DNA from: Phoronis australis | Lineage: Eukaryota; Animalia; Phoronida | Length of the DNA: 64,000 nucleotides | Assembly (NCBI GenBank): GCA_002633005.1 | Contig: NMRA01000155.1 | Location: forward strand, 303,844 to 367,843 | Direction: 5' to 3' | Part shown: positions 3,893 through 62,073 of the stretch, one piece after another | Position numbering within the stretch: position 1 is the first letter of the stretch | Layout of the letters: each line of letters starts with the position of its first letter | Notes under the pieces: generated by a model | Told to the model about the DNA's origin: nothing | Databases searched by the model: none | Seen by the model: only the letters and a program-made list of their open reading frames with translations | Program-made: the position numbers and the translations under genes

Positions 3893-5322
3893 ATGAGAAT
3901 TATAGTATTTTTCGTGTCTTGTGCAGTCTTGTTTGTCGGAGTGTTAGGCGTAGACTCGGTAGTAAACGTGAAGGGTGGAAAATTGAAAGGTGAGTGGTCT
4001 CAGGCGGATGGAGTAACTCGTTTTTTGGGTGTTCCTTATGCTTTACCACCAGTAGGGGAGCGCAGGTTTGCCCCTCCCCAGATGATGCAAAGTTGGGACG
4101 TGGAGAAGGATTGCACATCATACAAACCCTCATGCCCTCAGCCATTGGAGATGTTGAATGATTCGCGATCGGGTTATTTAAGAACATACAACGTTTCATT
4201 TGACTTACCGAAGACTAATGAAGATTGCTTGTACTTGAACATTTTTGTTCCTGGTGAGGTTCAAGGTAACAAATCTTTGCCAGTTATGGTTCATTTCCAA
4301 GACGGTGGATTTCAAGTCGCGCTTTCCGACGTGTTCGACGGTTCCAGCCTTGCACGGGAAGGTGACGTCATAGTTGTAACTTTCAGTTCCCGACTTGGTG
4401 CTCTTGGTTTCTATGGAGGGCACAATTTGGGACTTTGGGACCAGATCAACGTTTTGAAGTGGATGCATCACAACATTGGCGCGTTTGGTGGTGATGCAGA
4501 CAGGGTGACTTTGTTTGGAGTTGGATCAGGTGCATTCGCCGTTGGTCTCCATGTTCTATCCGCGGAGAGTAGAGGGTTGTTCAAAAGGGCCATCTCTCAA
4601 GGTACATCTGCCTACGATACAACCTTATTAAACTCAAATCCAGCTACTGCAAATTCTGCTTTCAACAAAGCAGTGAAGTGTGAACTCAAGGACATGAATG
4701 AACAGATGAAATGTTTGAGGTCGCTGAAGGTTGAGGACATTCTTGATGTACAGGCAAAACTTGCATACCAGTACCTTAATTTCATGCCGGCAGTTGATGG
4801 CAAAATACTACAAGACACACCAACCAAGATATTGGAAACGATGAAATTCAATGACGTGGACTACATGTTAGGTGTCAACAGCAACGGGGGATCTGCTGGT
4901 GTTTTTGACTTCTTCGCCCGTCTAAACACGGGTGCTGACGAAAATTATTTCAAGTCGTTCATAGACGCTGCTGCCTACATTGCATCACCGACAAATTTCG
5001 CCGCTGCAAAGGCAGCTTTGTCCTATGAATACATGCCAATGATGAAAGACAGTATGAACAGCAAGCAGTGGTTTCAAAAATCATTGGACTTTTCTAGAGA
5101 TGGTTACTTAAGTCAGATCAGAGGAGCTCAGTTGATACACGCCGGGGCTGGGTTACACGTTTATGCCTACTATTTTGACCAGTCTCCGCCGGTTTTAAGT
5201 GGCGTCCCAGTCGACGTGTTGGGTGTACCTGCGGGTGTGGAGGAGTTGTTCCTATTTGGAGGAGTACGTCATGAGTTCAGTAAACGACTGATGAAAACCT
5301 GGGCAAGTTTTGCTAAATCAGG
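3893..5322 (+). CDS. Gene A exon 1: signal peptide + most of the non-catalytic esterase domain
   Basis: ATG 3893; donor GG|GTATGT; 1430 nt, same length as B and C exon 1. Confidence 0.92.
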
Positions 5323-8300
5323 GTATGTACGGTACACAACCAGACAAGTTCTTTTCGTTATTGGTTATTGTAGCCAAAATTCATAGACGCACTTTATCAT
5401 GAGAATTCTTGAATGGCTTTCGTCAATCCTCAGCAGTAGACAGAAAACGTCCTTAAGTTTTCTTCATTTCCAATTTTCCAATTCTTAAGTCAAACACAAT
5501 GAGTTTTGCAATTTTTGCATTTTCTTTTTGCAGCAAATTTGTCAAAGTTTTTATGGTGTCAGTTTCATAGAAAGTAACTTTGTCTGTAATTGTGACTAAA
5601 ACTTTCTAAATAATTTTTTTTCTCCAATAGTTGATGCATTGCGTATTAAAAATATTCTGTAAAAATTATTTTGAGTAACTTAAAGATATATTTATAAAGA
5701 TCATAAACTTTGGCCACTGAGATGAGATACCTATTGCTAATCTGGAAAAGATGCTCAAACGGACACATATTTTTGCGAATGAATACTTTTCTTGGAGTGA
5801 GCAACTGCTCTTGAAAATTCATGTTAATGACAGTGTATAAACAGGTGGTGACTAATTAAAATTATGGTTTTCAGCAAGCCCTTTTTAGAACTTAGTGACG
5901 GCACTACATTAGGCTGGCCACACTTTAACGCGACGAACCAGAAAATAGTACTTTTGCGAGCCGACGTTACTAAGGCAAACGCTGTGATGGATTCTTTGCC
6001 AGACGATTTGGAACGAAAGGTTTCTTTCTGGGTTGAATTTCTACCCCAAATAACATCTCAAAGACACGGGTGCCGCAACGAGACATCTTCAACTATGGAG
6101 CACGAACACCCTATGATTCGTCTCAAGCAAGGTCACGTCCTTGGACGAAGTAGGAAAGTTGCAGGTAATTTGGTAGATTTGCGCTTTTGGTTGCTCGCCT
6201 GCTATACACCCTCGGGGGTTGGCTAAGTGAAGTACACTGTAACCTCCGGGGTGTAAATTGTTTGTTATCGAACTTCACCGTTATAGCTCCGCAGGCAGTC
6301 TTGTGTTCCTCCTGCTGTGGGTGCTTTTCTTATCACGAAAAATACACATTTGCGTGAATAAGAATATATTTGACGGGTGCAGAAATAACACTTCCTGAAG
6401 GTGTCTATTGTTATGAAAGTGTGTACACAGAAAGTGGTTGCATAATCAAGACTAAATGAAACTTGCGGGCTCACAATATATATACATATTAAGCTCTACC
6501 CACTTTGATGGCCAAATGACCAAATGATACTATGGCTAGCTGATTTCAAAGCATTGTGTGCACGAAACGATGCAAAAAGTGATGAGACATCATTGGTACA
6601 AGCCTGACGGAAGATATTGAGAAACGAAACCTGTGCCTTCCGGATGCTTAAAATAAGTCTCATCACCGTTACATTTATGATAAACCACATTCGTTAATCG
6701 GTGGTCAGATTTGTTCAGTTCTCTGTGAACACAGTTCTATTTGTTGACCCGTAAGCTCAAAGGCTAGGTTAAGTTCTTGATAAATTGTTCTTAAGACGCT
6801 GACGCAGTAAACTCAATGTGTTTAATTGGAATATCAAGTGAGTGCGTGGGGTAATGTCTCATAACATGCTCGTCGTGCCCTGGACAGCTTTTGTTATTCC
6901 AGCAATTGAAATGAGTTTTCCACAGTGAATCCCCAAAAAGTTTAATAAATTCCACCGTGTCTTGTTGGAGTCTTTTATCAATATTGGGCCTTTTCCTATT
7001 GGCGCTGCCGTTCTTAAGTAATACCAGTAAGAGAATGACTTCTGATTAATCCCGACTCAGAACTGGTGGAAATTCAATTGTAAATAATAAACGATGGAAC
7101 AAATTCCAGTGTCAGACACTCACATAGTTTGATGTTAGATTTCACTATTTTATTTTAGCATTTTGACACCGGCTAGGAACAAAATTCGCCCGCTTGATCA
7201 GTGACAGCCACTGGCTTTCTTGTGGATTCATCTTCGCAGCGGGAATTGTATGGAATTGGATGTATTACTCATCAACTGATAATTCATAACGTTTGCATTT
7301 TTTGGAAAAGCATTCGTTCATCTCAATCCAACAATGAATAGAAATTTGCCGTCATTATAATAGCAGGAAAGGTGTTAAAATGCTGTTTATACCTGTAGGT
7401 TGAAGCTTTCCGTCCACATTATTGGAGATGTGTAGGTGGGGATGAACGCCGGTTCAGACATGAACGCCAACTGGCAGTTATTTCGAAATTCAGTTTTTCA
7501 TGTGTGCCACTGCTAGTACCCTTTTGTTTCAAAGAAGAGCGACAATGCATGACCTACAAGATACCTGCTTGCAGTTTGCTGCTAGTTGAACCCCAAGGCA
7601 TATTTCCGACAAATTTGTGAATTGCTTCATCTTCGGTTGCATGTATGCAACACATGGCTACAGCCATTTCATATTTATCGCAGGTTTGTAATAGAAATAT
7701 CAATTAATCATTGTCAGTTCCATAAATCAATTTACATTTCCCACACAATAAACAGTAGATGTGCTTGTGCAATTCAGGAAACCACTTTCCATACGAAGAA
7801 TACCTGGATATCCCATATGCAGCGCCACCTGTGGGAGACTTACGATTCCATCCTCCAAGGCCCCATCAAGGCTGGAAGGGCATTCTAAATAGAACAAGGG
7901 AGACAACTGGGGTGAAGATGTGCCTACAAGCAACCTTTTCAAAGCTTCCGTTTGAGGTCATGGATGAAGACTGCTTAACGTTAGACATTTACCTGCCATA
8001 CGGAATTTCAAAAATCAGGTAATTCACGTTCAGGGCCTAGTGCTGTGTGTTATAATGTACATATACCTAGAGATATGACATGGAAGGTGTTAATAATTGA
8101 CTTGAAAACTGATGACGATTAAACCTTATCTCCAGCCTGCGCAAATCCATTGCCAGAATTTTTTTACTTTGCTTGACGTTTACCGATTGCCGATTTCTTG
8201 ACGATGTGTCCGGTCGACTGTCAAGATACAGTAACTGATGCAATTGTGTTTCAATCGGAAACTCATGGGATTCATGTTGGCAACTCTATGTGATCAACCA

Positions 8301-11300
8301 TCGAACTTTTTCTGTGTTGAGAAAGAAAGGAAAATTACTTACTAATGCCGGGCTTCTTATTTTTGTTATATTTGGAGTTGTGAATATACTTTGTTTTCCG
8401 AATTTTGAATACTAGTAAATGGTTTTATTGGGGTCAATGAGTGTTTGATGTATTCATTTCGCAAGGTAGAGAAGTTAAGAAAAATTCAGCCGACTTGGCA
8501 CTGATGCACACTCTCTGTATAGACTCTATGTCTTGTCGCATAAGGTCAATTAAACAATATTCAATATTTGCTCTAGAGTCACATAACTGGTTGTGTTTGG
8601 TGCCTGATCATCAGGCGAAATGGATTTACATAGCACCCCAATCGTCATTTTATGCACCCATATGTTTAAATGTGGGTGCGTATCGTCGTCATTTTTTTCC
8701 GGGGCGTCCGGTGTTTGGCGTCCACGGCTGTTTCTGTAAACCCCTTGAAGGTTCTTCATGAGATTTGGCACACGTGTTCTTATGAAGCTGACAACAGAGG
8801 ATTGCGGGTTGAACACTAATCCAATTACTAGCCCTCTAATAGCAAATTTTCACGTTTGCCTCTATAACTGGAGTTCCTAGTTGGTTGTTCATGAAATATG
8901 GCAAATAAATTTCTAATAATGAGGTGTCGACGCTTTGCCGTCTTAGATCGGATATGACGTATTTGCGTCTTCTTGTGGAAATTTTAAATTTTTAGTACGG
9001 TTTTGACCCCCGCCTCTCCTTCCGTCAAGCCGATCAAAAAATTACTGTCAAAAGTGACAGCTGTGTCCCTGATGGTAAAACGGCTGATGACAAAGATTTT
9101 CGGATGGGTTCGACTACTCTGGCGACCCCTAGTGGCAATTCTGTTTTTTTTGGTGTGTCTGGGGCAGTACCTCATTAACTCTTTGGAGGATCTTTGTGAA
9201 ATTTGACAGATGCTCCTATTGAGATCCTAACGGATGACGAAAAATTCATACCAATTCAGACTGCAAGTGTCTAGTGGCAATTTTATCCATTCCATTTTCG
9301 GAAGTATTCAATGTATTCTGCGCCGCCTACTGGTTATGATTTCGACTTCGTTTTAGCGTGCGCCTCTTTATCCGCTCAAAGGGTGATTACGAGTCGTAGC
9401 AGTTGTAATCCTGCTGACGAGAGCATGGCTGACAATCTCCGATGGGTTTTACACCTGTGGCGACCTCTGTCGATAATCTTGTATTTATGGCTGTAGCTCC
9501 TGATTCCTTTGCAGGATGCTTGTGAAAGTTTGATATGTTTTCCATTACTTTTTTGATGGCTCTGACTGCCACTGTNCCGGTTTCTCTATGTGTCCAGAGT
9601 TCTTTGATGCTTTTTTCATGAAATTCGGCAGACAAGTTGCTATTTCTTATATGAAGTTGGCAGCACCTGTCCAATTTAGGATGAAGTCAGGCATTGAAAA
9701 CACTAAAATCATCACCACTAGAAACACACAGATTGCGGCACATTTCAATGCTCCGCGTTCTGTTGTTGCTTTTGACAAATTCGTCGTTGATTTTTATCAA
9801 AATGACTTGCCTGGTTTTGATGGTCGGTAACATAGGTATATTGTTGGATACACGTCAGAGACATCAGATAACCAGATTTAATATTTAAGTGGTCAGTCTC
9901 ATAGCATTAATGCAACTAATCAGCATCTACGCAAGTAAATGGCATTTCAACGCATTGTGTTGCTCTTGTATCAAATTTCTTTGCAGCAATTTCCGTGACT
10001 AGCAAGATTTTATTCGCCGATTACTGAAAATGTTCGTGTAGCACTGCACCCCGTGATGTACGTTTTAAAGTCACTTTTGCTGCTCTTTGCAGTGAGTGGA
10101 ATGTTGGGAAAATGAGCACCTTTAAATCTTTGCCAGTTGTAGTGTATACAGTGGGCTCTTGGGAACGTCTTGTCTATTTAATAACAATGTTTTACATGGA
10201 ATGCTTGGATATGCAAAATTTCACTGGTTACCTGATCCTTTAATAGTCCTAGTCCCGTTCTTGGCTAAGACGGTCGTTTCAACATGATAAAAAATCAACT
10301 GTGTTTTTTATTGTAAGGAGTTATTGCAATCCAGGTAAATTCCACCTTAGTTCCATTTATAGCACATTTTATCGAAGATCGTGTGCCCTATCTCAGCAAT
10401 GACACTTGTTGGCGACGCTGCCTTTTGTGACAATGGAACTTTACTGATCAAATTTGACATTTGTTTCTTTTTAACACTGATCGACAACCAAAGTTTGAAA
10501 GGAACGTTTGTTATTTGCTCAACTTCCAAGGGAAATCCTCTATAACACAAAGCATGTCTTTCATTTGAACCACTTTCGTATAAATAAATCTCTTTAATTT
10601 TCTTTTGGGGTTGAATAGAAAGCGAATTTCAGAAACTATTTCAAACAGGACAGTTTATATATTTAATCTTTAGGTCGTTACTAATGCATGCACACGGCCG
10701 TCTTTGCTGAGGTCAATGGTCTATTTCATTGAAAGAAGCTCAAGTCCGAAATTTAATTTCCCGCTCCCACAGTAAAGTGTATAGTCATGATATTGTTAGC
10801 GCATCACAGACTAGAATTAATTTATACTGATAGTCCCAGCAATTAGTAGTAATGAGTGCATTCTCAGATATTTTGTTCTTTTCCTAACATGAGTTTTGAT
10901 TATTTTTCGGAAATAGTTATGTGGAGCGTAATACCATATTTCTGAAGTATGCCTCTGAGTCAGGCATCCTTAATATATGTATGTATATATATATATAATT
11001 CACCTTCCCGCCAACAGGTACAGACAGCTGCCCGTCATGGTATTCATTCATGGAGGAGAATACAAGGAAGGTTCCAAAAACACATATCTTGGTAACGGCT
11101 TGGTCCAGAGAGAGGTTATTTTGGTCGTAATAAACTATCGACTGAGTCCGTTTGGGTTTTTGGCCACCGGTATGTATAGTTCATGGATGTACTAGTAATT
11201 ATATGACTGTCTTTGTTCTGTAAGGTTTCCAGTTACAAGAAATAAAAAGTCAACATTTTTTTATAAAATGTCCCGCGTCATCTTTGTTACCAAGAGTGAC

Positions 11301-14300
11301 AGCACTGTGCAGGTTTATTTAATGCCCATTCACGTGCTTCTAGCGAGAGCATGAAAACTTGGAGAGCACGGCAACTCAAAAGATCTTCACAAACATCAGA
11401 GAGTATACTTTATTGGTACATCGTTCTGATCACTTATCAATCAAAATTATTTCTTGGTTATATTTCCAACAGGTGACAAGGCTTCGATAGGAAATTACGG
11501 TCTTATGGATCAACATTTGGCTCTGAAGTGGGTGAAGGAAAACATTGGGCACTTTGGAGGTGATCCTGATGAAGTTACTATATTTGGAGAATCCGCTGGA
11601 GCCGGAAGTGTTATGTTCCAAGTCATTGCACCTATCAATAGAGGACTATTTAAACGAGCTATTCCTGAGAGTGGTGGCACCGAATGTCCATGGTCACTCG
11701 TCACCAACGAAACGGCCCTTGCAAACACGAAAAAGGTGGCCGCTAAATTGAACTGTTCCTCAACAAGCACTCACATGATGGTCAATTGTCTTAAGCGAAT
11801 TAACGCCGTGGATCTCATTATGGTGACAGCGGGGGATTTCCTGGACCCTGTCAATATGAAACCTGTCGTAGACGGTCACTTCATTCCAAAATCACCGGAG
11901 CAAATGTACAAAGATGGCGTAACTAGAAATATAACCATTATGTCGGGACGCACGAAGCACGAGGGGTACTCGTATATTACTTTCCCAGAAGAAACGCTGC
12001 ATCAAATTGGAATGGAGGATAAAAGTCCGTCCTTTGCCAAAGCCTTAGACTTCTATTACTCTGATGTCATTAAGGCTGTTAAAAGTGGACTTAAAGACAA
12101 GGAGAGCATACTGCAATATACCGACTTTGTGACAGACTCTCAGTTTTCGCATTGCATTGAGAGAGATGCCAGTCTGCATGTTAGGTAAGAAAACGACTAT
12201 AATTGTGGAGAGATATCTTAATACTGACCAACTGTCATGAAAAACAAATTAGCTGTTAGCATTTGCAGAGGATAAAAGTTTAATTATTCAAAGGTGAGAT
12301 ACAAAGTAGTAAAGGTTAGCGACAAATCAAAGTGACCGGGAGAGAATATTCTCAACCAACTTTATTCTGCTCGTTGACATGTTTGCCCAATAAATTCATG
12401 CAGATGTTCTTCAGAAGACATTTGAAACTGCGTGGGACGAGTTGATACGGAAGCTTCTGCTTTAGAAATTGAACACCCTGTAGCCTTTCTTTGGAGATGC
12501 AACAAGTAGTACCGTGACATGTGGAGTGCGTTCCGTAGACCATAGTATTCTGCCAGAGAGCGAGATCACGCAAGACCGTGTAAAATTAGAAGGGTGGAAA
12601 GCGATTTTCCCACGCACGACGAATCTACTCAAGACCTTTCTAGTGTTACTTGTTGCAAAACCACAATTTGTCTGCGAGAGTAGAATGTCGATTTACGAGA
12701 CAAAAATCCTGAATAATGGGTTAGAATTCGCTGCCTTCCTTCCTTAAGCTAAGATTTCTTACCGCAAGACAATGCCATGCATGAGTTTGTTTAAAATTGA
12801 CAAATTGGTCGAATCGCTGACACCCTGGTAGTTGTCACGATACTCCCTTCAAACTGTTGAGACTTGCACCAAAACGACCTAATTCATTTCAAAAAAGAGA
12901 TGAGGGTCAATTCAATTTGAAGTCGCAGAAAACTCGTGCCCTTGTTTGGAATGTGGTAATTGAATTCAGATGCTCATCGCTGAGCATTGGTATAGAGTAT
13001 GGAACAATTTGGGTTTTTCCGTAAGCTCATACTATTTCTCGAGGGGTTTCATAGCTGCACATGTCCGAACTTCAATCATACCAGCAAAGGAATTTATTTC
13101 GCCAAAATGCTTGTCAGGAACACGGCTTCAGCCTAGCGTGACCCAACAGCCGTACGCTACTTCAGTTTTAAATTCTTTGTCTGCCTCTTGATGTACAGTT
13201 GTCTGTTTTTTAAGCCTGTTGTCGCTGAGAGTATATTAGTTTGCATTCTCCTGTTTGAAAGTTACGTGAGTTGCAATTATGACTGAAGTTCGTACACGCA
13301 CAGGGATGATACACCTCCAAGGAAAACTTTAAGGTAGCGAAAATAACTGAACTGTTATTGATGACGTAATAATGTCTGAACAGATGGAAAGTCGATGCTT
13401 GATTAACGTTTTTGAAAGTAAGTCAAAGCCTATCTCATGTCGATTTCATTCTCTATGGCGTACGGCTACTTGATGCCAGAACTTCACTGGGTGGATTTCA
13501 CATTCATATTGTCTTTTGTTTCAGCAACGGAGGCAAATTGTATATGTTCATCTTTAACTTCCATGCTGGTGTCTCCTTCTTTTCGAATTCCAAAATCCCG
13601 GACTTCATATACGGGTCGCATGGTGACGAGCTGGCGTACGTGTTTGGCAACGCCTGTGTAAGAATGCCAGAGGTTGAACCACTGAGATCATTTCCCGGAA
13701 TGACCAAAAGCGATATCACCATGTGCCATGCAATGATGGACATGTGGACTAACTTTGCCTACACCGGGTAAGATATCCATAAGATCCGCCATCTGCACAT
13801 CTGGTTTAGTCTCCTCACCATTATAAAACAGAAGCTCTTGTTATTGAGATAGATTAGAATCTGACAACCGAACAAGTTGAGGCCAGTTTTGCGTTAAGGG
13901 TAAGTTCTCTTGAGACTGTTCTGAACCGATGTCTTATCAAAACGTAAGTGGGACTATCCAGGTTAACGAGTCTGGTGACAACGAATAACGAATAACTAAC
14001 TGTGTCTTCTTCTTTCTAAAGCATGCGGAGACATTGCAGTGTTATAACGGAAGTCTGATGAAATTGAAGTTACGTTAGAAATGATGGGGATTTTTTTAGT
14101 AGTTTTAACTTTTTGCTAGAAAATTAAAGCTGTTGACGGGTTCACCTTAACTTCATATATCGGTGTCCAAAATTCTTGAAAGGTGTGTCCAAAAGCAGCT
14201 TCACCAGTCCCTGGAGCAAAATTCCCTTCTCTCGTCAGCACAGTCTGGTTTCCGCCCCTTGCATTCCACTCTGACTACAAATATTCATGCTACTGAGATT

Positions 14301-46021: not shown

Positions 46022-46260
46022 ATACCCCGTTCCAACAATACTGGCTTAGTTAAAGACAAATCTTAAATTTTAGTAAATTTTAAAATAAAAGTTAGATTTG
46101 TCTCTTAACCAATTCAAGAAAGAGATCTTAAGTTTGACTTAAGTGTATGATCTAAATTTTGTCTTAATTATGACTAACTTTCCAAATGCGGAAATTTCAA
46201 AGTTTGGAATCTTAGACTTAAGTCAAAAATGAACTTAAGTCAGTTTCTTGGAACAGGCCC
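46022..46260. mobile_element. Harbinger-like MITE (copy 2), intergenic
   Basis: CTG TSD on both sides; body aligns end to end with 37133-37380 (AAGACAAATCTTAAATTTTAG...GAACTTAAGTCAGTTTCTTGG.ACAGGCCC). Confidence 0.8.
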
Positions 46261-48122: not shown

Positions 48123-48214
48123 TAAATCCGTTTAAGGTAAGCGAAGTGGGGATTGCCCACGTTATATAGAGACCAGCGAGAAGGCACTACTACTATTGTA
48201 AACAAATGTTTAAG

Positions 48215-49644
48215 ATGAGAAATTTGCTGTTTACGGTATGTTGTGCGGTCTTCTGGGGTGGGGTGTTAAGCACCGACTCAGTAGTGAACGTAAAGGGTGG
48301 AAAATTGAAAGGCGACTGGTCTCAAACGGATGGAGTAACTCGATTTTTGGGCATTCCTTATGCTTTACCACCGGTTGGCGAGCGTAGATTTGCACCTCCC
48401 CAGATGATGGAGAGTTGGAGTACTGAGAAAGAGTGCCTTGCCTACAAGCCTTCATGTCCTCAACCATTGGACATGTTCCAGGATTCGAGAACTGGTTATT
48501 TGAAGGTGTACAACCTTTCCTTTGACCTACCACAGACCAATGAAGATTGCTTGTACTTAAACGTGTTTGTTCCTGGCGAGGTTCAGGGTAACAAATCTTT
48601 GCCAGTTATGGTTCATTTCCAAGATGGCGGCTTCCAAGTAGCACTTTCTGATGTGTTCAATGGCTCCAGCCTTGCACGCGAAGGTGACGTTATAGTTGTA
48701 ACTTTTACTTCAAGACTCGGTGCTCTTGGTTTCTATGGAGGGCACAACTTGGGACTTTGGGACCAGATCAAAGTTTTGAAGTGGATACATCACAACATCG
48801 GCGCGTTCGGTGGTGATGCAAACAGAGTGACTTTGTTTGGAGTTGGATCAGGTGCATACGCAGTTGGTCTCCATGTTCTATCCGCGGAGAGTAGAGGGTT
48901 GTTCAAAAGGGCAATATCTCAAGGTACATCTGCTTACGATATGACCTTATTGAACTCAAATCCATCAGCTGCAAATGGTGCTTTCAACAAAGCAGTAATG
49001 TGTGAACACAAGGAAATGGGAGAACAGATGAAATGTTTAAGATCGCTGAAGGTTGAGGACATTATTTCTGTGCAAGTAAATCTTTCACAGCAGTATTTGA
49101 ATTTCATGCCGGCAGTTGATGGACAAATACTACAAGACAGTCCAGTGAAAATATTGGAAACAATGAAATTCAACAAGGTCGATTATATGTTAGGTGTCAA
49201 CAGTAACGGGGGATCTGCTGCTGTTTTTGACTTCTTTGCCCGTCTAAATACGGGTGCTGACGAAGATTATTTCAAGGCGTTCATAGATGGTGCTGCTTAT
49301 ATAGCGTCTACTACAAACTTTGCCGCCGTGAAGGCGGCTCTGTCGTATGAATACGCACCGATGATGAAAGAAAGTATGAACAACAAGCAGTGGTTTCAGA
49401 AAATATTGGACTTCTCTAGAGATGGATACTTAAGTCAAATCAGAGGAGCGCAGATGATGCACGCCGGTGCTGGGTTGCACGTTTACGCCTACTATTTCGA
49501 TCAGTCTCCGCCAGTTTCAAATGGCGTCCCAGTCGACGTGTTGGGTGTACCGGCGGGTGTGGAAGAGTTGTTTCTATTTGGAGGTGTGCGCCATGAGTTC
49601 AGTAAACGACTGATGAAAACGTGGGCAAGTTTTGCTAAAACAGG
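48215..49644 (+). CDS. Gene C exon 1
   Basis: GG|gtgagt donor; 1430 nt from the homologous ATG. Confidence 0.92.
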
Positions 49645-52600
49645 GTGAGTACATTTTGTAACTTAACCGTACTGCAGTCTCTAGCTCTATGTAAAAACTC
49701 ATGCTTCTGCTGACTGATCAGAAGATTTTTAATAGTCACCATTGTTCTGATTTAGGCGTCGACAAGTCGCAAGAAAAAACTAGTCTTAGAGTTCTTCTTT
49801 CCCAACTGATCATTTATGTCCAAAGGAAAATTGTGTTTGGCGACAAGTAGGTACGTCTTTGTCCCTATGCTCATTGTTGCCAATTTTGTTTATATTTTAA
49901 TGCTCGAGCAACTTCTCTAGAGAATGTTTTAAATGACTGTTAAAAATCAACAGTTACGTGACAGCGGATGAAATAGTGACTGATTAAGTTATTGGTTTTC
50001 AGCAAGCCAACTTTAGAACTTAGTGACGGCACCACGTTACACTGGCCAAACTTTAACGCGACGCACCAGAAAACAGCACTTCTGCGGGCTGACGTCACAA
50101 AGGCAAACGCTGTGATGGATTCCTTGCCAGACGATTTGGAACGAAAGGTTTCTTTCTGGCTTCAATTTCTACCCCAAATTACAGCTCAGAGCCACGAATG
50201 CCGCAACGACACATCGTCCACAATGGAGCACGAACACCCTATGGTTAAACTTAAGCAAGGTCATGTTCTTGGACGAACCAGGATGAGCGCAGGTAATTTA
50301 TATTTTAAGTTTACGTTGAGTAAAAATCTGCATCATTTAATGTGGCATAGAACGCGAAAAGCATACTAAGTTGCATTATTCAAAGTGATTCTCTGTCCCG
50401 GAAACAGAAGTTGCGCTGTTCACTAGACATTTTTACTGCTTGTTCGTAAAGATTGTGCATCTCAGTTGATGTCTAATGTCTTTCCTTCAGTTTCGAATTT
50501 CAGCTGCTCGTCACTTCGTTTATTTTTCTCCCACAAAGCAAAGTACGTCTCTTAAGTTTTGTGTGGCATGACCTAGGAAATCTTAAACTATGTTAAAACA
50601 TAGTTTTGCGAAATGATTTTAGTTACCGTGAATTTCCGTAGATAAGCCCATGGGCGTGTATTCGGAAACTGAAAATTTTCAGGCGTTTTAGCAACACCAA
50701 ATAAACGCCCGGGATATTATTTGGAAAAGAGGAGTGTAAACGGAAACCATAGTTTTGCTGACTTGACACTCTTTTACTTAAAACTAAGTTTTTAGTTTTT
50801 TGTAAACAAATTCATAGTTCAACAACGCCTCGTTCGTTTTCATAAAAATGATAAATGCTCCACGAAACTGAATTTGTGACAAAAATTTGACGCTGAGTGG
50901 GCTTTTAAGAGGAAATTTTCCAACTAAAGGTTCCACTGTGTGGATTCTTGACACCACAAGTTGTAACACCAAATAAACGCCCACGGGCGTGTATTCGGTA
51001 TAATTTACCAAATAAGCTCCCGTGTGCGTTTCATCGGGTGGGCTTATCTTCGGAAAACTCCGGTATGCACCATTTTATAAGCCTAAACTTTGAGACGATA
51101 GCTTTGCTTTTGGATGTCAATGTCTCCACAACGTTGCTCATTTTTGAAAAATAATGTCTCGGTACCAACTCCCTAATTCAGCCAAGCGTTATCAAAAATG
51201 AATTGAAATAGCAACTGCTCTCAATTCTTTGAACCCAAAATGTTCTGTTGTAAATTGTCATTTCGTACAGCACACCACCATAGTAAGTTATAACATGTCT
51301 AACTTTTAGTAATTTAGAGAATTCTTAACCAATATCGTATGATGCTCAGCCGCATTTGAACTTTTAGTTTTTTCCTTCCTAATTCTCCTCTAGCGGCAGC
51401 ATCTTAAACATTTAAACCAAGTCCTAACAAGTACATGTACTTACAAAATCTGATGTTAAAAAATTCACTATACAATTTCCCTGTAAGAAACTGATTCGTG
51501 AGTGACATGCATGCCCACCCCCTCTTCATAACCGGGAACACTGTGCAGAGTTGGCGTGCGGCGTAAGCAGGTACTGAGAATCGTTCTTGGCGATGTTTAT
51601 TATTAGGCTCATCATGTTTTGTATGATTCGCGTACTTGTTACGCAGTCAATGCCAAATGAATCTCCAGGGTTCGCATAGTAAGCAAGCTACACACTATGT
51701 TGGCACAGTGATCAAACAATGATTTCGACTAATGCACCGTGTTCTCGAAAGTTAGCTGACTCTCCAAGACAAATGTTCCAGGCTCTGACAGTTTATCTAA
51801 GCCCTGTTACCACAAGTGATTAAGTATTCTGACAAGCAACGGTTATCATAAGCTAACAATCTCCAATCCCGTTAATCACAGTTCAAATTTGTACGTCTCC
51901 ACCCTGTAACCAACAAAGTAGTTTGTTCTCAGGAAAACATATTTCCACAGAGGCAGGACATCCGTGGGAAATTTAAAGCTAAATAAGTTTGATCAAGTGT
52001 TTTGGTCGCTCGAAGCCTTGCTTGACCTTGCTCCTCGTAACGCAACCTAGGCTGCACGGGACCCGTTTCAAGAAACTTCAGTTTCGGCTTAGGCAAAAAC
52101 CTTGAAAGTATTCCAACGACTTTCGTATCGCACATTCAACTGTTGGGACTTTCTGACGAAGGCTTTTTTATAGTTAGGTCGTTCCTACCTTTCTTGTCGG
52201 TCGCACAATGTTGCGGGCCGCATTTTGGAAGGTAGACCTACAACATTCAATCACAGAGTGTGATTTTAATGCCTCAAGACCTATTGATTTTGGCTTAAAT
52301 CAGTTTTAAGATATAGCTATGTGCGCTCATTTTTCAACAACTGAAAGCTCAAAAATTGAATATATGCTCCAGGGTTTTGGATCGTTGCTTTGTGTTTTAT
52401 TGGTGCAAAACGATAAGGCCAATCGAGAAAAACAAACCACGAGACACGCAGTCATGACGCGATGACGTCACAGGTAAATTTAGCACCTTCCACTGCTACT
52501 TAGTTATACTGTAGCCTGGACTGTGCAGCACTGAAGTAAGTGAGGGTTATAGCCCCATATGATGCGCCGCCCATGGCCCAACACTGAAATATGTGGATAT

Positions 52601-55600
52601 TACCCCCCCCCCTCCCAGCCCCTATGTCGCTCTACCCATGTGTAGATAGAAAAATTGAAGATGTGATTATCTGTATAGTACATCTCCAAAAGACTCAATT
52701 TTAAATTCAATATTGTTGCTCCTTCAATTGCGTGCAATTCTTTGAACACATGAACATTCCGTATATCTTTCCCGTGTGTGATGCACACGGTGGGCCCATA
52801 TCAGCACTGTCACTTCGTGTTACCCTAGTTCGAGCTAACCTAAGATCGCGTCTTCAAACCGGCCCGTATACTTACATGTACCTCCCCTGGACCGACGGCG
52901 TCGCCACTATCGTTTACCATTAATGTCGAAGGCAACCCTTTTCCATGTCATTTTTAGCAAAAATAAGATGTGTTTATGATCTCAGACATATTTTTCCTTA
53001 ATTACAGCTTATTGCAATTTAATTAATTACTCGTCCTCTACTCCGGATGTGACGTTTTGGGAGGCAAAAATTTCGCGCCAATTTCTTTTCGTATAGTATG
53101 ACAGTGAGATCTGTCGAGTCAGTCATCGTTTTACCTCAATTGTGACAAGTTCGTTCGTCGTTTGCTTTTTTACGAGTCAGTCAATATGCCACACTGTTGC
53201 TGTGTACCATGATGTACTCATTATCATCTCAAGCGCGCTTTGAAAGCACCTTTGCAATGCTTTCCGAACGATGACACATTTCGCCGTATTTGGCTCGTTC
53301 GTGTGAAGAACGCAGCGTTACCCGTCCACGCAAACTTCAAAGCAGTGAAGGGTTACCGAGTGTGTGGCAAGCATTTTCTGCCGTCAGATAACGAGAGAGA
53401 TATGTACGCTTAATTGATGAAGGTCCCTTCGAAACATCGCCTGAAGAAGGGTGCCATACCGTCGGTGTTGATTCCCGGCAGTGCCCCGTCGCCACCCCCG
53501 AGAATTGCATTTTTGAAGCGAGAAGCCTCCCGAGCTATGGCCACTACAGTGTCTGGAGGCGCTTCATCTACTGTCAGTAGTGCCTCTGAACGTACCTCCA
53601 GAGCATGCAATTCCGGAACTAGCAGTGATTCGTCCTGTGCTGTTGTCTTTTGTCCAGAGCCTGTAAGCAGCCCTGCAGCGATGTTGAGTAGTGGTAGTGA
53701 ATGCAGGCCCAGTTCGACACACAGTGACGAGGACAGTTCGTCGTCCTATGAACAGGTCGGCGAGCCAAACTTTGATACGTTTATTGTGGACTTGTCTAAA
53801 GTATTGGAGCTATTTCGACGGTGATAGATGTGTAGCGAGGGAGTCAACGGCAGGAGGTAAGCAGTTTGGGTGCTCAGGTCACCATCCAGTGGGAGTGTGT
53901 CGCTGGACACTTGACAAGTTGTGCGTGTGCGTACTCTGCCTCATTATACTCGGCTCAAACATATACCCACCCTCTGACTGGCCCTGAAAAAATTTCTCGT
54001 CACCACTGCTATGAACAATGTCTCACTACTGTTACTGTGGTATGGGTTACGGGCTCCAGCCATTTTCAGGTTACTACAAACTAAACAATCCCTACATCCA
54101 ACTTAATTTGATTTCTCTAACAACCTGCTTTGTCGTAGAATACTCGTGACGCCAATTTTAGAAAAACAGCACGAAAACAAAAGTAGTACAGATTCCCACA
54201 GTAAACTCAACGCAGAGCCAAATTGGCGCGAAATTCTTGCCTCCCAAAACGTCACTTCCGGAGTAAAGAACTAGTAATTAATTAAATTACGAAAAGCTGT
54301 GATTAAGTGAAAAATACGTCTGTGATAATCAACGAACCTTACTTTTGCTAAAAATGGCATGAAAATGTTTGCCTTCGCCTTTAAGGTGTTGAAAACGTCG
54401 GTGTTCGGTGGGAGGTGAAAGTGTGATAAGACCTGAAATATTATGCCGTGCAAAAAAGTGATGGAAGACATTGTGTCTTAGTGGGCTGTCACAAAAACGA
54501 CGAACGTGGAAGTAATCAATTTGCAGTAAACATGACAAGATCTTCAAGGTTGGCCGTGTTTACCGCCGTTTAAATTTTGTATTCCCAAGAATTCAATAAG
54601 CCATAGAATGGTTATGTGAAATAAATAGAAAATAATGTAAGAAAATTAAATAATTCTCTGAAATTGAAGATAGATGGGCCAAATAAATCTTTTGGTTTAA
54701 AATAGGATGGGCGAGCCATATACAGTGGAACAGAAACACAAACTATAAATATATGAACAATTCCCAGACTGATAACAATGCGTTTAAATCGCTTTTTAAC
54801 ATTTGATTAACAACACTATTGTATATGAAAGTAGTGTTTTAAGTCAGCCTGTTGATATCGTACCGGGGAAGGGACCAGGTGAGATACTTTCCCACCCCTT
54901 TGAGTATTATTTAAAGAAAAACAAAATTTTTGGGAACCGTTTCATGACGTTTGGGTCTATATAAAATTCAAAATCGTCATTATCATGACATCGGTTGTGT
55001 AATGTTAAGTTTGAATATTTAGACATCGCGCAATAGAAAAATAATTATACAATACGATATAGCTACATGTATGTACATGTATTGCAGTTATTCAAGACTA
55101 ACAAAAGAGTCATATGCAGTTTTTCTCACTATTGTGACATTTATTAATGCTTTGCGAGTAGGTGGTATGAAGGGAATTTAAATGACTAGTAAAGGTGTTC
55201 ATGTTCAAGAGTAATTTTGAAAAATCAGCATACAGGTAAGTTCTTTACGTTGCCTCCTCTCGATCATAATTTAAATGGTTCAAATATGTTTCTACTCTAC
55301 GCTGGTTCTGAACTGCAATGGTTTCAGTAACTTAAGGTCTGCCTCCGTATTTTGGTGCCTGCATGCATTTGTAGGTCTATATTGAAATGTGGACCAGTGG
55401 AATAATGCTGAATGGTACAACACGAAATTCCATCTGCAGGGGCAGATCCAGGATTTTGAGTTAGGGGGGCCAGGACAGAGTATTAGCCAGGATTTTCCCG
55501 TCAGACATTCGCACCCACGAACTGCCAAATGTAATCTTAGAATTTTAGGGGGGCCATGGCCCCCTTGGCCCCCCTCTAAATCCGCCACTGATCCGTGTGC

Positions 55601-58600
55601 ATCATTGTGCTTGTCTTGGTTTGAGTGTTTGTCGTATATATGGTTCTTAAATGAGTGACAAGGTATTGTTTTATTGTTTCGTTTGACGCCTTTTAATCGT
55701 CCGTGTGGAAAAGATTTGTTACGTAATACACAAAGCAATGTGGGATTGTGGTCATCCCAAGCAGCACCGTCAGCAGACGTATGCATACAATCTGAAGAGG
55801 TTATTTCCTTTGAGTAGCATTTCAAGCTGCCAAAAATTCAGTTTGTCTCAGATGCGTGAATACTGGTAGCATCTATCCACGACCAACATTCAGCTTTTCC
55901 TCTGTTGAAGTGACACTTCCAGGAGAGAGGACGATGATGACCGACATGCAGAAATCCATATGTGGGCATGAACGTTTGTCGTAGATACGTGGAAGGGAAA
56001 TGAACCAAAAATGAAGTAAATGCTTTCATTGTTTTGATTGGCGCCTTGTGATTCAGAGTTTGTCAAAAAGTACGACATTGTTTCGTTTGGCATTCATCTC
56101 CATTTAGTATGTTTTGTTGCTGCTGCAGCCACATGCCACTAACGCATTTATCAATAGATGGGGAAGCATATTTGTGCATTTTTTTAGCATCAACCAATCG
56201 GAATGTCAACATATAGCTTCCCCTGTTCAACAATGTGAAGCCATGTCTCATGTTCCATTCCCAGAATTACTCCCTCCCCCCTCCCTTGTAATATTAGTAA
56301 AGAATGTATTGTCGACTTCTCTAGCATAAAATCGGCAATTTCTCTGGGGTAAGATCGAAAAAGCCTATCAAACAAATCGTTATTATTGACAATGTCTTCC
56401 ATAATGTGAAATTTTGAATTGTTTTGGCTCTTTAGAAAACTACTTTCCATACGAAGAGTACTTAGATATCCCATATGCAGCGCCACCTGTGGGAGACTTG
56501 CGATTCCAGCCTCCAAGGCCCCACACAGGTTGGAAAGGCATTTTAAACAGAACAAGAGAGACAACAGGTGTCAAAATGTGTCCACAGCCTAGTGCAGCGG
56601 TCCCGTTTGAAATAATTGATGAAGATTGTCTAACGTTAGACATTTACGTGCCATACGGAGTTTCGAAAGTCAGGTAAACGCACACACACAAACGCATGCA
56701 CACACATACACACACACGCACAGACGCACACATAGTCGTTTCTTAGCGAAATATGTTTACTGTTATGACTCGAAAGTTCGCACATGCTCAAATGTAAGAC
56801 ATCTTCTATGAGAAATTTGATGATACAGTTGAAATTAATCAGCCAGTTACGGATTTTTAAGTTTAAGTCGTAGGTGAATGTAAAGAGGCCACGCCTCTGT
56901 AAGGTCAATGGCATCTTTTCAGAACTCAAGCGAACGACTTTTGATAGAAAGCATGCAGTGGCGTTGTTGTTAAACTGAATTTATCTTTTTCATGAAGAGC
57001 TTTAACAGGAAAACAACACAGACTTCATCCATTCGTTCAATAGGTACAGACAGTTGCCCGTCATGGTTTTCATACACGGAGGAGGTTACGTCTTTGGCTC
57101 CAAGAACATATATCTTGGCAACGGCTTGGTCCAGAGAGAAGTCATTTTGGTTGTGATAAATTATCGACTCGGTCCATTTGGGTTTTTGGCAACTGGTAGG
57201 TATTACAGAGGTTTAACTATGCATTTTAGTCGTAGTTGTTCTGTAAACTTTACTGTAACAAAAAGGAGATAAAATACGTCTTAACGTTATTACAAAGGTT
57301 GTCAGTTTGAGTTTAATTCAATTATCCATATCCATGGTTTAACTAGAATATACAAAGCCATTAAATTTATGCACTTATGACTTATAGAATGAAGCTGAGA
57401 AAATGAGGGTAAAATACAATATTTGATTTGAAATGTTAGTGGATTTGAAAACAGGTAAGATAAACCGATTTCATCAAATCTATTAATATTCTAATAAACG
57501 CTACAGTTCTTCACTCGTACATTTTGAATAGAACAGCTAAAACAGATGTCGAGCAAATTAAATCCCTAAGATCTTAACAAATATCAGAGCTTCTCATTTG
57601 ATCGTGAATGGTACTGAATACTTGACCATCTTCCTAATTGCCGTTATGTTCACAACAGGAGACAAGGCTTCAATAGGTAATTACGGTCTTATGGATCAAC
57701 ATTTGGCTCTGAAGTGGGTGAAGGAAAACATAGGGCACTTTGGAGGTGATCCTAATGAAGTTACTATCTTTGGACAATCGGCTGGAGCCGGAAGCGTTAT
57801 GTTTCAAGTCATAGCACCCGCCAATAGAGGGCTATTTAAACGAGCTATTCCTGAGAGCGGCGCCGCCGGGTGTCCATGGTCTCTCCTCACAAACGAAGCG
57901 GCACTTGCTAACGCGAAAAAAACAGCGGAAAAAATGAACTGCTCCTCGACAAGCACTCACATGATGATTAATTGCTTGAAACGAGTTGAAGCCATGGATG
58001 TCGTCATGGCGACTGCGGGGGATGTCCTAAACCCCATTTATATGAGTCCCGTTGTAGACGGTCATTTCATTCCGAAATCACCGGAGCAGATGTATAATGA
58101 TGGCGTAGCCCGAAATATTACCATTCTGATGGGACGTACGACGCACGAGGGCTACATGTACGTTTCCTATCCAGAAATAATTCTAAAAGATATTGAAGAC
58201 AAAAGTCCGTCTTTGGCTAAAGCCGTCGATTTTTACTACGCTGATGCCGTAAAGGCTGTTAAGAATGGTCTTACAGATAAGGAGAGTATATTACTTTTTA
58301 CCGACCTTGGGACGGACTATATGATTTCACACGCTATGGAGAATGAGGCGAATCTTCACGTAAGGTGAGAGCTCACCCAAGCTGGGTACATTTATCATGT
58401 CATTTTCTCACTGAAGTCAATACAACTCTGTCGCCACGAACTTTGTCGATCTTTCTGACAGGTTCAAACTTTAGCCCAGGTGAAATAAATATACACCCAA
58501 AACAAATTTCAATTGTAATTTGAACTAAATGAAACTCTTTAGCTGCTCCATAAAGTATCAGAACTCTAAGAAAATTTAATAAGTGGAACACCATAATTGT

Positions 58601-61600
58601 TGTAGAAGGGGGACAATTTGGTCTTATGCATACTCATGTGCTATGCGTTATCATTGATATTGCATATCAACATTAACGTAATAAAAATACTAGAAAAAAT
58701 GATAAATGATACAGGGTTATATAGAATTGGAAATATAAGATTAGAAATTATTAATTTTCAGGATATAATTCGTAGTTTATTGTTGCAAACACTGATCGAG
58801 CTACCTTTTCTATGTGGTGGATTTTAGTCAATATTAGAGTTCATTATATCATTGATTAAATAATGATGGAGCATATTTATGATACGTCTAGTGAACCCTG
58901 TACGATTTCTTAACTACAGACCAGGGCCTGGGGATTTATCCTCGTACTGGAGATGGAATTCGAAGATTTTGTTGACGTTTTTGTTGTTCTTTAAAACGAA
59001 ATCAAGGTAGCTGTCTTTCATTCTGTATTCGATTAATGTTTGGTTTAGGCGACTGAGAATCTAGTCCAAGTTTTCACTCGAGTCCTCTAGATGAAGGTTA
59101 AAAACTTTCTGGGTGAAAACTCGCGATTTCAAGTATAATCCGAGATTTTGAGTTCATAGGCAAGCTTTATTTCTGAGGTCAGCATGTGCAAACTAAGAGT
59201 ATACAGTCAGTCAGCCACGTAACCACAGTTTAAATGAGCACATGGAAAACAGACCGTTAGCTTAAGCTCGCACAAAAGTAGAACGAAAAATGTGAAAAAT
59301 AGTTCGAGTTCAATTTCAAGTACACTCGAGGTTAGGCCCAAGGCTCACTTCCGTAAAAGCTGGCTTTCACCGGAATGATGTGTAACTTTTGCTCTTACAA
59401 AGAGCTGCTGACAGACCGCTTCTCTTCAATGCAATGATCGGGAAATATATAATGGCACGGGCCGTGACAAGTCAATTTGTAGCACCGTGTTCATCCTGCT
59501 TCAGGTAGCTCATACAGTGTTCACAGCATCATATTAATCTATCCTGTACTGGAAATAAGTAAAATCGTACCATATAACTTCTCTTGTGAGAAATCTTATT
59601 ACGTATCTTATTTCATCTTATTTCTTTTGTTTGTATACATGTATGTGCATTGTTTTTAAAAATGCTCAGAGGTAATATCACAGATAACGTATGGCATCTC
59701 GTTACGCGTAAGGCTAGATTAAACCCTCTCTAAAAACGTCGTGTGGCTGAAAATATCCAACCGATACGCTAAGCAGGTCTGTAGGAAACAGAAGTACCAG
59801 GGTCCATGTGCCCTCTCCCACCGTAATGGTTTGCAAGCGTCATGGTTGAACAATTCGTGGTGACTGACGTAAGAATATTAAGCGCGTTGGTTCCCCAGGT
59901 TAGGGAAAAAGTGCGACAGAGCATAATACTGTCAGAGAGATATATAAGATTAAAAAGAGAATATTTGTCAACTACAAGTGCAGGATACCCGTCAGGACAT
60001 GTTTGTCAGGGGCCCTCCGGTTTTTGCTTCATGTATCGTCTACAAGCACTTGAAACCGAACTCCTTATCATACTTGAGAAAACAGGATATGGGATTTTCT
60101 GAAGCAAATTTATTCCGGCTTTCTAAGTTCAAGAAGACAATTTTCTGATCAGTTTTTCTTCTGTTTTCTTTTTTGATATTGCATGTCATTTTACATTAAC
60201 GTGTCCCATGACGGAGAGGGACCCTTATGATATAAACTGTTGCTGCTCATTTCCTGGTTCCGAAATAACCTGTCACCTCAATGATGATGTCATCCATGGT
60301 CTTTCTTTCACTTTTTATCAATATCCTTTCGTCTTATGAAGCCGTTATCGGAGAGACTGGTGACGGTATCAATTGTCACTTTTTCCTGTTCTTTAAATGA
60401 TATAAACTATCATAATGAGGGCTCTCCTCACTAGGTAATTATTGCTAATATGAAATAACCCGTAGACGTATGTTTATAGCTTTCGAATAATTCTAAGCCT
60501 TCAAAAGTAGCAACATTCAGATACACCAGGGGATGCAAGCTTGGTGAAAACCGGGGATATGAGTGTGATGGCGAAATTTGGTACGTTTAGTCCTTCCTAG
60601 GAACGTGCCAATAAGCCTTCACGTTCTTTCATTTACTCTACACTGTATTCAATGATTCTGGTGCTTTATTAAGGGTATCTCACTTTTGCTTAACTCTTGT
60701 TTCAGCAACGGAGGCAAGCTATACATGTTTATCTTTAACTTCCATGCAAGCGTTTCCTTCATGTTTAATTCCACAACCCCGGACTTCATATACGGATTGC
60801 ACGGTGAAGAGCTGTCGTACGTGTTTGGCTACGCGTGCGTGCGAACTCCAGAGCTCGACTCAGTGATGTCTTACTCTGGAATGAAGAAAAGCGATATCAC
60901 CATGTGCCATGCAATGATGGACATGTGGACCAACTTTGCCTACACCGGGTAAGATATGTATGCTACAAACCTTCCGTCTGTTGAAAATACATATTCAATT
61001 AATTTATGTCACTTGCCATTATAGAACCAAAATGCGCCCTTGTTTCTAAGCTGGATTAGAAGAAACCGAGAACCGAGCAAGTTTAGAGGCCATAATCCGG
61101 AGTCGTTTTTACAGAAGACGGCTTTGCAATGCCAATGATATAACTTACCCATTTCTCGAGAAAAGATCAAACACAAAAATTAATCATTTGCAATAATTTA
61201 TTCGAATGTACACCATTCAATGAACTTTTTAGCTTGTTTCAATGTTTCAATAGTACAACTTCTTACACTGGTTATCGAAAACGCATACGCTGTAGCTGCC
61301 ACTATCAAATGTTATTTACTGAATTACTAGGTGTAGATGTGAATTCACCGAATATTCAGCAAAAAACAAAACACGCTCGGACTATGGTTAGTATTGTCGA
61401 TTGTGTCTTATTGGAACGATGCGAGAGCTTCATTGACAATATATCTTTTCGGTCCAGCATTGTGCTCCCTCGCAATACATTCGAGGATACGTTATACCTT
61501 CAACATTTTTTCGCAGCTAGTTCTTACATTTTGTGTAAATATTGTTTGAAAAGCATAGAAACTACGCCTGTGGTTCGTAACGGGTTTACGCTCTGGAAAT

Positions 61601-62073
61601 AATGAGGACTGATCACGTGGAACAGGCGATTCTTATGGTCACCTGGCTGTACCAGGAGGTACGTCTTTTCCTAAACTCCTTATTCACTTCTCAGTCAAAT
61701 GTAAAGAGAACAGAGTTACAAAAAGGGTTGAAACCATTGGTAAAGTTTTTTAAAGAACTGGTGGAGAGAAATTTTATTGCATATTTTTCATGTTTCTCAA
61801 AATCGTCCATTGTTTGTACATTTCAGCCACCCTCTCATGGGCAGACGTCATTTTAATTTGAATTGGCCTCAGTACAAAATGGATACGCAATATGTCTTCA
61901 ATATCAACAAAAATCTGACCGTGTCATCTGGCGACGACCTGATTCTTACACCCCGTGGCAATCCGGACCTGCTCCGTCCAAAGAAGATTAAGTTTTGGAA
62001 TAAGTTAGCCCCGAAGCTCAGGAAAATCGACACCCCTATGCCTTGCAATACGACAGCTACTGGGATGCCCTAA
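48215..62073 (+). CDS. Gene C: two-domain carboxyl/cholinesterase-family protein, 7 exons, ~1101 aa (in-frame upstream ATG at 48206 also possible)
   Basis: Exons 48215-49644, 50003-50292, 56436-56673, 57044-57195, 57659-58364, 60706-60948, 61827-62073 (3306 nt). Only in-frame indels versus A/B (-3 in exon 3, -6 in exon 5). Domain 2 has GQSAG, HEG, LHGEEL. Confidence 0.92.
50003..50292 (+). CDS. Gene C exon 2
   Basis: ttcag|C AAG ... GCAG|gtaatt; 290 nt. Confidence 0.88.
50626..51063. mobile_element. Tc1/mariner (pogo/Tigger-like) MITE in intron 2 of gene C
   Basis: TA|CCGTGAATTTCCGTAGATAAGCCCA ... TGGGCTTATCTTCGGAAAACTCCGG|TA; internal repeats of CCAAATAAACGCCC and GGGCGTGTATTCGG. Confidence 0.8.
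52924..54380 (+). mobile_element. Internally deleted Kolobok-like DNA transposon with THAP-domain pseudogene, in intron 2 of gene C
   Basis: TTAA on both sides (52920-52923, 54381-54384). About 160-bp imperfect TIRs including TCCGGA.GTGACGTTTTGGGAGGCAA.AATTTCGCGCCAATTT. THAP frame from ATG 53186. Confidence 0.85.
53186..53900 (+). pseudogene. THAP-domain transposase N-terminal remnant
   Basis: MPHCCCVP*C...FP...W...VCGKHF...*...RLKKGAIPSV with two in-frame stops, then a Ser-rich linker, then FIVDLSKVLELF...GAQVTIQWECVAGH. Confidence 0.8.
55437..55590. mobile_element. hAT-like MITE (154 bp) in intron 2 of gene C
   Basis: TIR CAGGGGCAGATCCAG versus reverse complement of the end, CAGTGGCGGATTTAG. 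GC-rich palindrome GGGGCCATGGCCCC. TSD degenerate (ttccatctg/atccgtgtg). Partial second copy at 40025. Confidence 0.7.
56436..56673 (+). CDS. Gene C exon 3
   Basis: tttag|AA AAC ... AG|gtaaac; 238 nt. Confidence 0.9.
56678..56712 (+). repeat. Degenerate (CA)n tract at the start of gene C intron 3
   Basis: acgcacacacacaaacgcatgcacacacatacacacacacgcaca. Confidence 0.7.
57044..57195 (+). CDS. Gene C exon 4
   Basis: aatag|G TAC ... G|gtaggt; 152 nt. Confidence 0.9.
57659..58364 (+). CDS. Gene C exon 5 (GQSAG)
   Basis: aacag|GA GAC ... AG|gtgaga; 706 nt. Confidence 0.9.
60706..60948 (+). CDS. Gene C exon 6
   Basis: ttcag|C AAC ... GG|gtaaga; 243 nt. Confidence 0.9.
61827..62073 (+). CDS. Gene C exon 7
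   Basis: ttcag|C CAC ... TAA; 247 nt. Confidence 0.88.

Follow-up and report, generated by a model that had tools for sequence, protein, structure and literature searches.

The question raised by this locus is whether its esterase-like reading frames belong to six separate genes or to three genes that each encode two domains in one chain. The locus lies in a 64,000-nucleotide (nt) stretch of the Phoronis australis genome (the window), where three similar units, copies A, B, and C, are all found on the + strand. When the splice sites were read off the sequence, each copy gave a 7-exon model, of 1104, 1104, and 1101 amino acids (aa), respectively (Table 1). GT-AG borders were present at 18/18 introns, the intron phases (2,1,2,1,2,2) were identical in A, B, and C, and no model contained an internal stop. 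The chain consists of a hydrophobic N-terminus, a first domain (D1, to approximately residue 537), a linker of approximately 18 aa, and a second domain (D2, from residue 556). The identity between D1 and D2 was approximately 26%, and the identity between copies was 82-86% in D1 and 78-80% in D2. Exon 2 was 290 nt in all three copies and had no stop between the last helix of D1, the linker, and the initial D2 strands. The original prediction had described this exon as running in frame from a KVSFW motif into D2 in every copy, which agrees with our models, but the motif reads KISFW in copy B.

A Pfam scan of copy A bore out the two-domain layout. COesterase (PF00135) matched exon 1, which belongs to D1, with 336.6 bits (E 4e-100), and exons 3-6, which belong to D2, with 69.5, 61.3, 180, and 36.7 bits, respectively (curated cut-off 27); exons 2 and 7 had no Pfam match. 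The Tg-repeat families of thyroglobulin were absent from all 7 exons of copy A, and NCBIfam gave no match above its cut-off. No further esterase pieces were found in the window by a translated search with copy A as the query.

The splicing of the models was assessed in three stranded RNA runs of 151-nt reads from one study, with a cut-off of 90% for copy A and 96% for copies B and C. A contig from a small set sharing the species label of these runs matched 284 nt of copy A with zero differences. In copy A, all six introns were spliced on the sense strand. The reads across the joints in the three runs were 16/20/28 for exons 1-2, 14/15/26 for exons 2-3, 14/20/28 for exons 3-4, 12/16/23 for exons 4-5, 5/27/21 for exons 5-6, and 21/38/41 for exons 6-7; both joints of exon 2 were thus seen at similar counts. 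Read depth in intron 2, taken over its first bin free of exon sequence (6464-6957), was 0 to 0.24; a common D1-only transcript that ends in this intron is thus unlikely, and no pile-up of read starts or ends inside an exon was among those listed. A 151-nt read is shorter than the 290-nt exon 2 and no single read covers both of its ends, so we infer the continuity of exon 2 from the matching joint counts. Reads only 90-95% alike made up 827/1346, 864/1464, and 831/1643 of the copy A reads in the three runs; because this is over half, reads from close alleles, paralogues, and repeats are counted together with those of A itself.

Copy B was covered by low-level reads. Its exon 2-3 joint had 0/0/5 reads, the exon 3-4 (offset row) and exon 6-7 joints were also seen, and the exon 1-2 joint was not among the joints listed. 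For copy C, where the reads were compared with the region of exons 1-2, the exon 1-2 joint had 0/2/6 reads. A simple scan of intron 2 for a hydrophobic leader exon gave 0 candidates in all three copies, in agreement with the earlier claim that D2 has no signal peptide of its own. Each copy is one spliced gene; the reads support the splicing of A in full and that of B and C in part. Six separate genes, the arrangement that the original prediction had argued against, are ruled out by the open frame together with the spliced reads.

Two further observations were made in these runs. The 90-95% reads on 3893-17979 were closer to A than copies B or C are on average, and more copies or very divergent alleles are likely outside the window. 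Four reads with two starts, all from run X2, skipped 32604-34295 with CT..AC ends on the opposite strand; they represent spliced antisense RNA over exons 1-2 of copy B and were absent from the other two runs.

The two domains differ in the catalytic triad, as had been predicted. In all three copies, D1 carries Gly in place of Ser, Gly in place of Glu, and Ala in place of His; the first of these replacements lies within GVGSG at 4517-4531 of copy A. D1 keeps two oxyanion glycines. This triad-less (dead) domain is under purifying selection and is not decaying, with a pairwise dN/dS (nonsynonymous to synonymous substitution ratio, own Nei-Gojobori script) of 0.16-0.23 at dS 0.42-0.63. The structure prediction of copy A D1, made for residues 1-476, had a predicted local distance difference test (pLDDT) score of 91.8 and a template-modelling (TM) score of 0.85 to butyrylcholinesterase and carboxylesterase 1, and D1 is thus predicted to fold like a cholinesterase (alpha/beta-hydrolase). 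The cysteine loop of D1 has 30 residues, a further odd cysteine (Cys74) is present, and the best PDB sequence matches of D1 are neuroligins.

D2 keeps Ser, Glu, and His in all three copies. The Ser-Glu/Asp-His triad is the criterion for a catalytic carboxylesterase in PMC8387733, and D2 is likely to be enzymatically active. Its pairwise dN/dS was 0.18-0.23 over the same dS range. The cysteine loop of D2 has 16 residues and contains no counterpart of the loop Trp of acetylcholinesterase (AChE), which is the choline-binding tryptophan; moreover, approximately 26-30 residues are missing after the catalytic Glu compared with AChE and neuroligin. From these three features we infer that the site is open and that D2 is a general carboxylesterase, not a cholinesterase. 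D2 also carries an odd cysteine (Cys776). The nucleophile motif of copy C reads GQSAG. At residue 668, HGGEY in copy A replaces the HGGGY of B and C, so that a Glu stands at the third oxyanion glycine, and two more charged changes adjoin it (exon 4, 11018-11169). An acidic change at the oxyanion glycine alters the specificity of insect esterases.

Five glycosylation sequons of D2 are common to the three copies, and its cysteines are paired, yet D2 lacks a separate signal; it would thus need D1 for entry into the secretory pathway. Beyond residue 25, no 19-residue hydrophobic window above 1.6 was found in A, B, or C, which indicates no membrane segment, and no copy has an endoplasmic reticulum (ER)-retention motif at its C-terminus. 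These scans agree with the earlier view of a soluble secreted protein, which is predicted from the sole signal-like stretch at the D1 end, called by hydropathy only.

The pockets of the two domains were then compared across the copies. Seven pocket-lining segments were invariant at 91/117 columns in D1 vs 58/103 in D2 (Fisher p 0.0009), whereas the remainder of the domains showed no difference (317/401 in D1 vs 333/438 in D2, p 0.32). Within D2, the pocket was more variable than the remainder (p 0.0001); within D1, it was no more variable than the remainder (p 0.8). As read from the alignment, this pattern fits a fixed D1 module carrying an enzyme D2 of drifting specificity.

The origin of the two domains was approached through their relatives. 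Neither word-index searches nor HMMER against 1.84 billion representatives gave close relatives (best 150 listed, 29-42% identity). Among the matches listed, the nearest full-length database relatives had 32-33% identity for D1 and 37% for D2, and the ESM Atlas returned generic COesterase clusters only. A careful tree was built from 38 rows, and the approximately unbiased (AU) and Shimodaira-Hasegawa (SH) tests were run on 38 of 66 rows. D1 fell in a clade (support 97/96) with Lingula, Haliotis, Gigantopelta, and other proteins, 7/8 of which are Ser-less. Its neighbours are mostly Ser-less single domains, and those of Haliotis (P0122) and Lingula (P0394) have a C-terminal hydrophobic segment. 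D2 grouped with Lymnaea, Penaeus, and Actinia rows in a quick tree (support 97); in the careful tree, it was placed with support of only 80/89 in a wider group including neuroligins, and its placement is thus loose. The AU test rejected a clade of D1 with neuroligins (p 0.005).

The single intron of D1 matches the last intron of D2, which has four more, in position and phase. Six of the eight tree neighbours of D1 were checked, and five (P0127, P0149, P0392, P0404, and P0409) are among the 27/501 proteins that end exactly at the D1 intron position, suggesting that a large first exon is a trait of the D1 family. Duplication and decay of one gene is disfavoured by the 26% identity, the different introns, and the rejection of a D1+D2 clade by the AU test (p 0.03), although the SH test does not reject it (p 0.066). 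Two genes of different subfamilies were thus likely fused, and the fusion was then multiplied. The tree itself points to a likely lophotrochozoan host.

With regard to function, we tentatively favour the reading in which D1 is the secretion and pairing partner of the variable esterase D2, and we give it slightly less than an even chance. A Ser-less lophotrochozoan gene of the carboxylesterase/cholinesterase (CCE) family, with one large first exon, would have been fused ahead of an unrelated multi-intron esterase gene, and D2 would enter the secretory pathway through D1. Four-helix bundles of the cholinesterase type would be built from the two dimer helices of each domain, either inside a single chain or across two chains, and Cys543 and Cys1096, which follow the last helix of each domain, would lock these bundles, giving an assembly that is half catalytic and half structural. 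D2 would hydrolyse extracellular esters, probably bulky or lipid-like ones and not choline esters, with a copy-specific preference. The segments matched to the two dimer helices align with AChE and neuroligin and are invariant at 9/12 and 10/13 positions in each domain; Cys543 and Cys1096 are conserved in all three copies. According to PMC5943944, cholinesterases and neuroligins dimerise through a four-helix bundle with two helices per subunit; the same bundle probably forms in the dead domain of thyroglobulin and is tied to ER trafficking.

Several points weigh against this pairing reading. According to PMC5943944, AChE dimers do not depend mainly on the cysteine tail, a within-chain bundle may be strained by the linker of approximately 18 residues, and the odd Cys74 and Cys776 allow other possible pairings. 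A Saccoglossus tandem used as a stand-in was folded as two well-formed domains with a predicted TM (pTM) score of 0.59 and no confident relative position, and its linker was disordered (pLDDT <50); this stand-in comes from another family and carries little weight. Through its oxyanion Glu, D2 of copy A may be impaired or changed. The pocket segments had been picked by homology after the alignment had been seen. As for the origin, the AU test was based on fast tree searches with 2000 replicates, D1 and D2 both sit on long branches, and the SH test leaves the D1+D2 clade standing. For the Phoronis protein, the D1-D2 interface, the disulfide lock, and the activity of D2 are all putative, and so are the pseudo-heterodimer and the regulation of D2 by D1 that the original prediction had proposed.

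The evidence can be read in other ways. D1 could serve in targeting or adhesion, as the ectodomains of neuroligin and neurotactin do; it would bind one constant component (protein, matrix, or mucus) and park the esterase at a surface, with the two domains as beads on a string. The surface and pocket of D1 are constant across the copies, its tree neighbours are mostly Ser-less single domains, the hydrophobic segments of the Haliotis and Lingula neighbours suggest an ancestral cell-surface role, neuroligins are its best PDB matches, and the Saccoglossus analogue has no fixed interface; however, D1 does not group with neuroligins in the AU test. We regard this account as possible but on balance unlikely; it is compatible with the pairing reading, and both may hold. 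A D1 that binds a small molecule (substrate, product, or toxin) in its old pocket, or that acts as an allosteric lid on the open D2 site, is improbable. It would explain the two retained oxyanion glycines, the near-invariant pocket loops of D1, and the short loop (16 vs 30 residues) and post-Glu gap of D2, but conservation in the D1 pocket does not exceed that in the remainder of D1.

Two further accounts deny that the chain works as one. In one of them, the protein is a precursor whose linker is cut after secretion, releasing the dead protein and the esterase in equal amounts. An exposed linker between two complete domains would suit such a cut, but no dibasic site in the linker is common to the three copies and the linker carries a sequon in all of them, which makes this account very improbable. 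In the other, each unit holds two genes or transcripts, the fused chain stems from faulty modelling or from minor read-through, and a signal-less D2 could start from linker methionines. Met551 and Met557 are kept in all three copies, exon 2 is not bridged by any single read, and 37 of the 89 multi-domain database models described below contain a second signal-like stretch, as is usual where neighbouring genes were merged. Nevertheless, no stop follows D1, the counts at the two exon 2 joints match, the depth in intron 2 is near zero, no pile-up of read starts or ends inside an exon is listed, and the frame is kept in three copies at the dS given above; we consider this arrangement hardly probable at all. 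A bolder reading would make the protein a single-chain, disulfide-locked copy of the AChE dimer, in which a pseudoenzyme subunit gates the open site of the other, and one of at least three independent animal inventions of a pseudoenzyme-enzyme fusion of this fold (this lineage, ambulacrarians, and a nematode), an architecture that would so far have gone unrecognised; we find this reading decidedly doubtful.

To place the protein among known systems, it was compared with the members of the type-B carboxylesterase/cholinesterase family (PF00135), to which both domains belong by Pfam and D1 also by its predicted fold; the Phoronis chain differs from this family in having two domains, one of them triad-less. 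In PMC5943944 and PMC12992692, the ChEL domain of thyroglobulin is a dead cholinesterase fold that acts as an intramolecular chaperone and dimeriser in a secreted chain. D1 resembles ChEL in being such a fold and in forming part of a longer chain that is secreted, as predicted for D1, whereas ChEL lies C-terminal to non-enzymatic Tg repeats, and D1 is N-terminal with a CCE domain as its partner. ChEL and the Phoronis domains do not group in the tree. If the pairing reading holds, D1 would work like a ChEL attached to an enzyme. Neuroligins and insect neurotactin, gliotactin, and glutactin share with D1 the Gly that replaces the nucleophile. However, the Phoronis protein lacks a membrane segment and cytoplasmic tail by the hydropathy scan, and the vertebrate neuroligin rows keep the Glu and His that D1 has lost. 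Unlike true cholinesterases (AChE and butyrylcholinesterase), D2 has neither the long cysteine loop nor the loop Trp, and it stands apart from the AChE rows. The Phoronis protein thus falls outside the neuroligins, the thyroglobulins, and the true cholinesterases.

The novelty of the architecture, which had also been implied, was considered against a query-biased survey of 509 fetched proteins, all unverified database models, in which CCE domains of at least 400 residues were counted and called live or dead by Ser alone. Two or more CCE domains were present in 89/509, and 52 of these 89 had no second signal-like stretch. Among these 52, 12 mixed Ser-bearing and Ser-less domains: 8 were live-dead, 3 live-live-live-dead (one Styela cluster), and 1 dead-live; a further 6 were dead-dead. 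The dead-then-live order without a second signal was thus found in 1/89 multi-domain models, and no description of a dead+live CCE architecture was found in the literature searched; Johnson and Moore 2012 (PMID 22210164), cited in PMC12992692 and dealing with invertebrate deuterostome members, may mention the tandem models. The architecture is less novel than had been implied.

The single dead-live model is an 'acetylcholinesterase' of Parastrongyloides trichosuri (A0A0N4Z9T2, P0411), one unverified database model. It resembles the Phoronis protein in its domain order, its length of approximately 1100 aa, and the lack of a second signal and of a membrane segment. However, its own halves are sisters (support 100, quick tree), indicating a local duplication, and its first domain keeps Glu and His.

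Six of the 8 live-dead models came from sea stars and acorn worms. The ambulacrarian tandems (Acanthaster XP_022100211.1, P0257, and P0263; Patiria P0260; Saccoglossus XP_006825066.1; Glandiceps XP_077983973.1; sea urchin XP_797799.2) share with the Phoronis protein two CCE domains, a short linker, no second signal, and one Ser-less domain (both are Ser-less in the urchin). They differ in being live then dead, mostly with a C-terminal membrane segment, whereas the Phoronis protein is dead then live and has none. In the careful tree, the ambulacrarian dead domains and the second domain of the sea urchin formed a clade (support 98/98) apart from D1. The grouping of D1 with the ambulacrarian dead domain was rejected by the AU test (p 0.02) but not by the SH test (p 0.53). 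That of D2 with the ambulacrarian first domain was not rejected (p 0.18), and neither domain grouped in this way in the careful tree. With these models and the nematode one, the design of the Phoronis protein is not unique; the uncharacterised ambulacrarian live+dead models are likely of separate origin from the Phoronis fusion.

Two groups of tandems were noted beside this comparison. P0257, P0260, P0263, P0366, P0369, P0378, and P0003 make up an apparently conserved membrane-anchored tandem family of echinoderms and hemichordates, which is live+dead but dead+dead in the sea urchin. All-live tandems with very short linkers and no second signal (P0241, P0243; P0264, P0268, P0271; P0252) include three-domain cyprinid fish proteins, two-domain metagenome proteins, and one protein on a 3.5-kb Logan contig.

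Dead members of this family are known as adhesion molecules and as the chaperone of thyroglobulin, and live ones as enzymes; here, a dead and a likely live member share one chain, with RNA support. Three copies in which the dead half is fixed and the pocket of the enzyme drifts are a natural matched set for asking what the dead domain does. Moreover, long carboxylesterase models with two domains can easily be discarded as merged genes, yet some of them are genuine, and the survey points to an apparently unstudied live+dead family of sea stars and acorn worms.

Table 1. Exons and landmark residues of the three tandem carboxylesterase genes (positions in the window)
Feature	Position	Strand	Content	Landmarks (position)
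Copy A exon 1	3893..5322	+	Signal-like N-terminus and most of D1, aa 1-476	Gly211 (4523), Gly332 (4886), and Ala447 (5231) in place of Ser, Glu, and His, respectively
Copy A exon 2 (bridge)	5875..6164	+	D1 C-terminal helix, linker, first D2 strands from 6110	Linker: Cys543 (6071) and conserved sequon
Copy A exon 3	7778..8018	+	D2, short cysteine loop	
Copy A exon 4	11018..11169	+	D2 oxyanion loop	HGGEY in copy A
Copy A exon 5	11473..12184	+	D2	Ser745 (11592); Glu868 (11961)
Copy A exon 6	13525..13767	+	D2	His974 (13619)
Copy A exon 7	17733..17979	+	D2 C-terminal helix, stop	Cys1096 (17950)
Copy B	31938..42747	+	1104 aa; exons 31938-33367, 33981-34270, 35556-35796, 37668-37819, 38300-39011, 41259-41501, 42501-42747	
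Copy C	48215..62073	+	1101 aa; exons 48215-49644, 50003-50292, 56436-56673, 57044-57195, 57659-58364, 60706-60948, 61827-62073	

Other features were seen around and within the three genes. Directly upstream of copy A, a single open reading frame (ORF) at 1568-2362 (+) has a hydrophobic N-terminus and a long Thr/Ser-rich tail; it gave a weak PAN/apple match (E 6e-4, 20 bits vs a cut-off of 21.4) and occurs once in the window. Intron 6 of copy A contains broken pieces of a reverse transcriptase of the long interspersed nuclear element (LINE) type at 14151-15247, and Pfam RVT_1 was matched in 2/3 ORFs checked. In intron 2 of copy C, an inverted repeat of approximately 165 bp (52920-53084 and 54220-54384, 85% alike) flanks a 1.1-kb interior whose short ORFs gave no Pfam match, possibly a non-autonomous DNA transposon. 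A dispersed 245-bp repeat at 37137-37381 and 46027-46261 (85% alike) was covered by many RNA reads from elsewhere.

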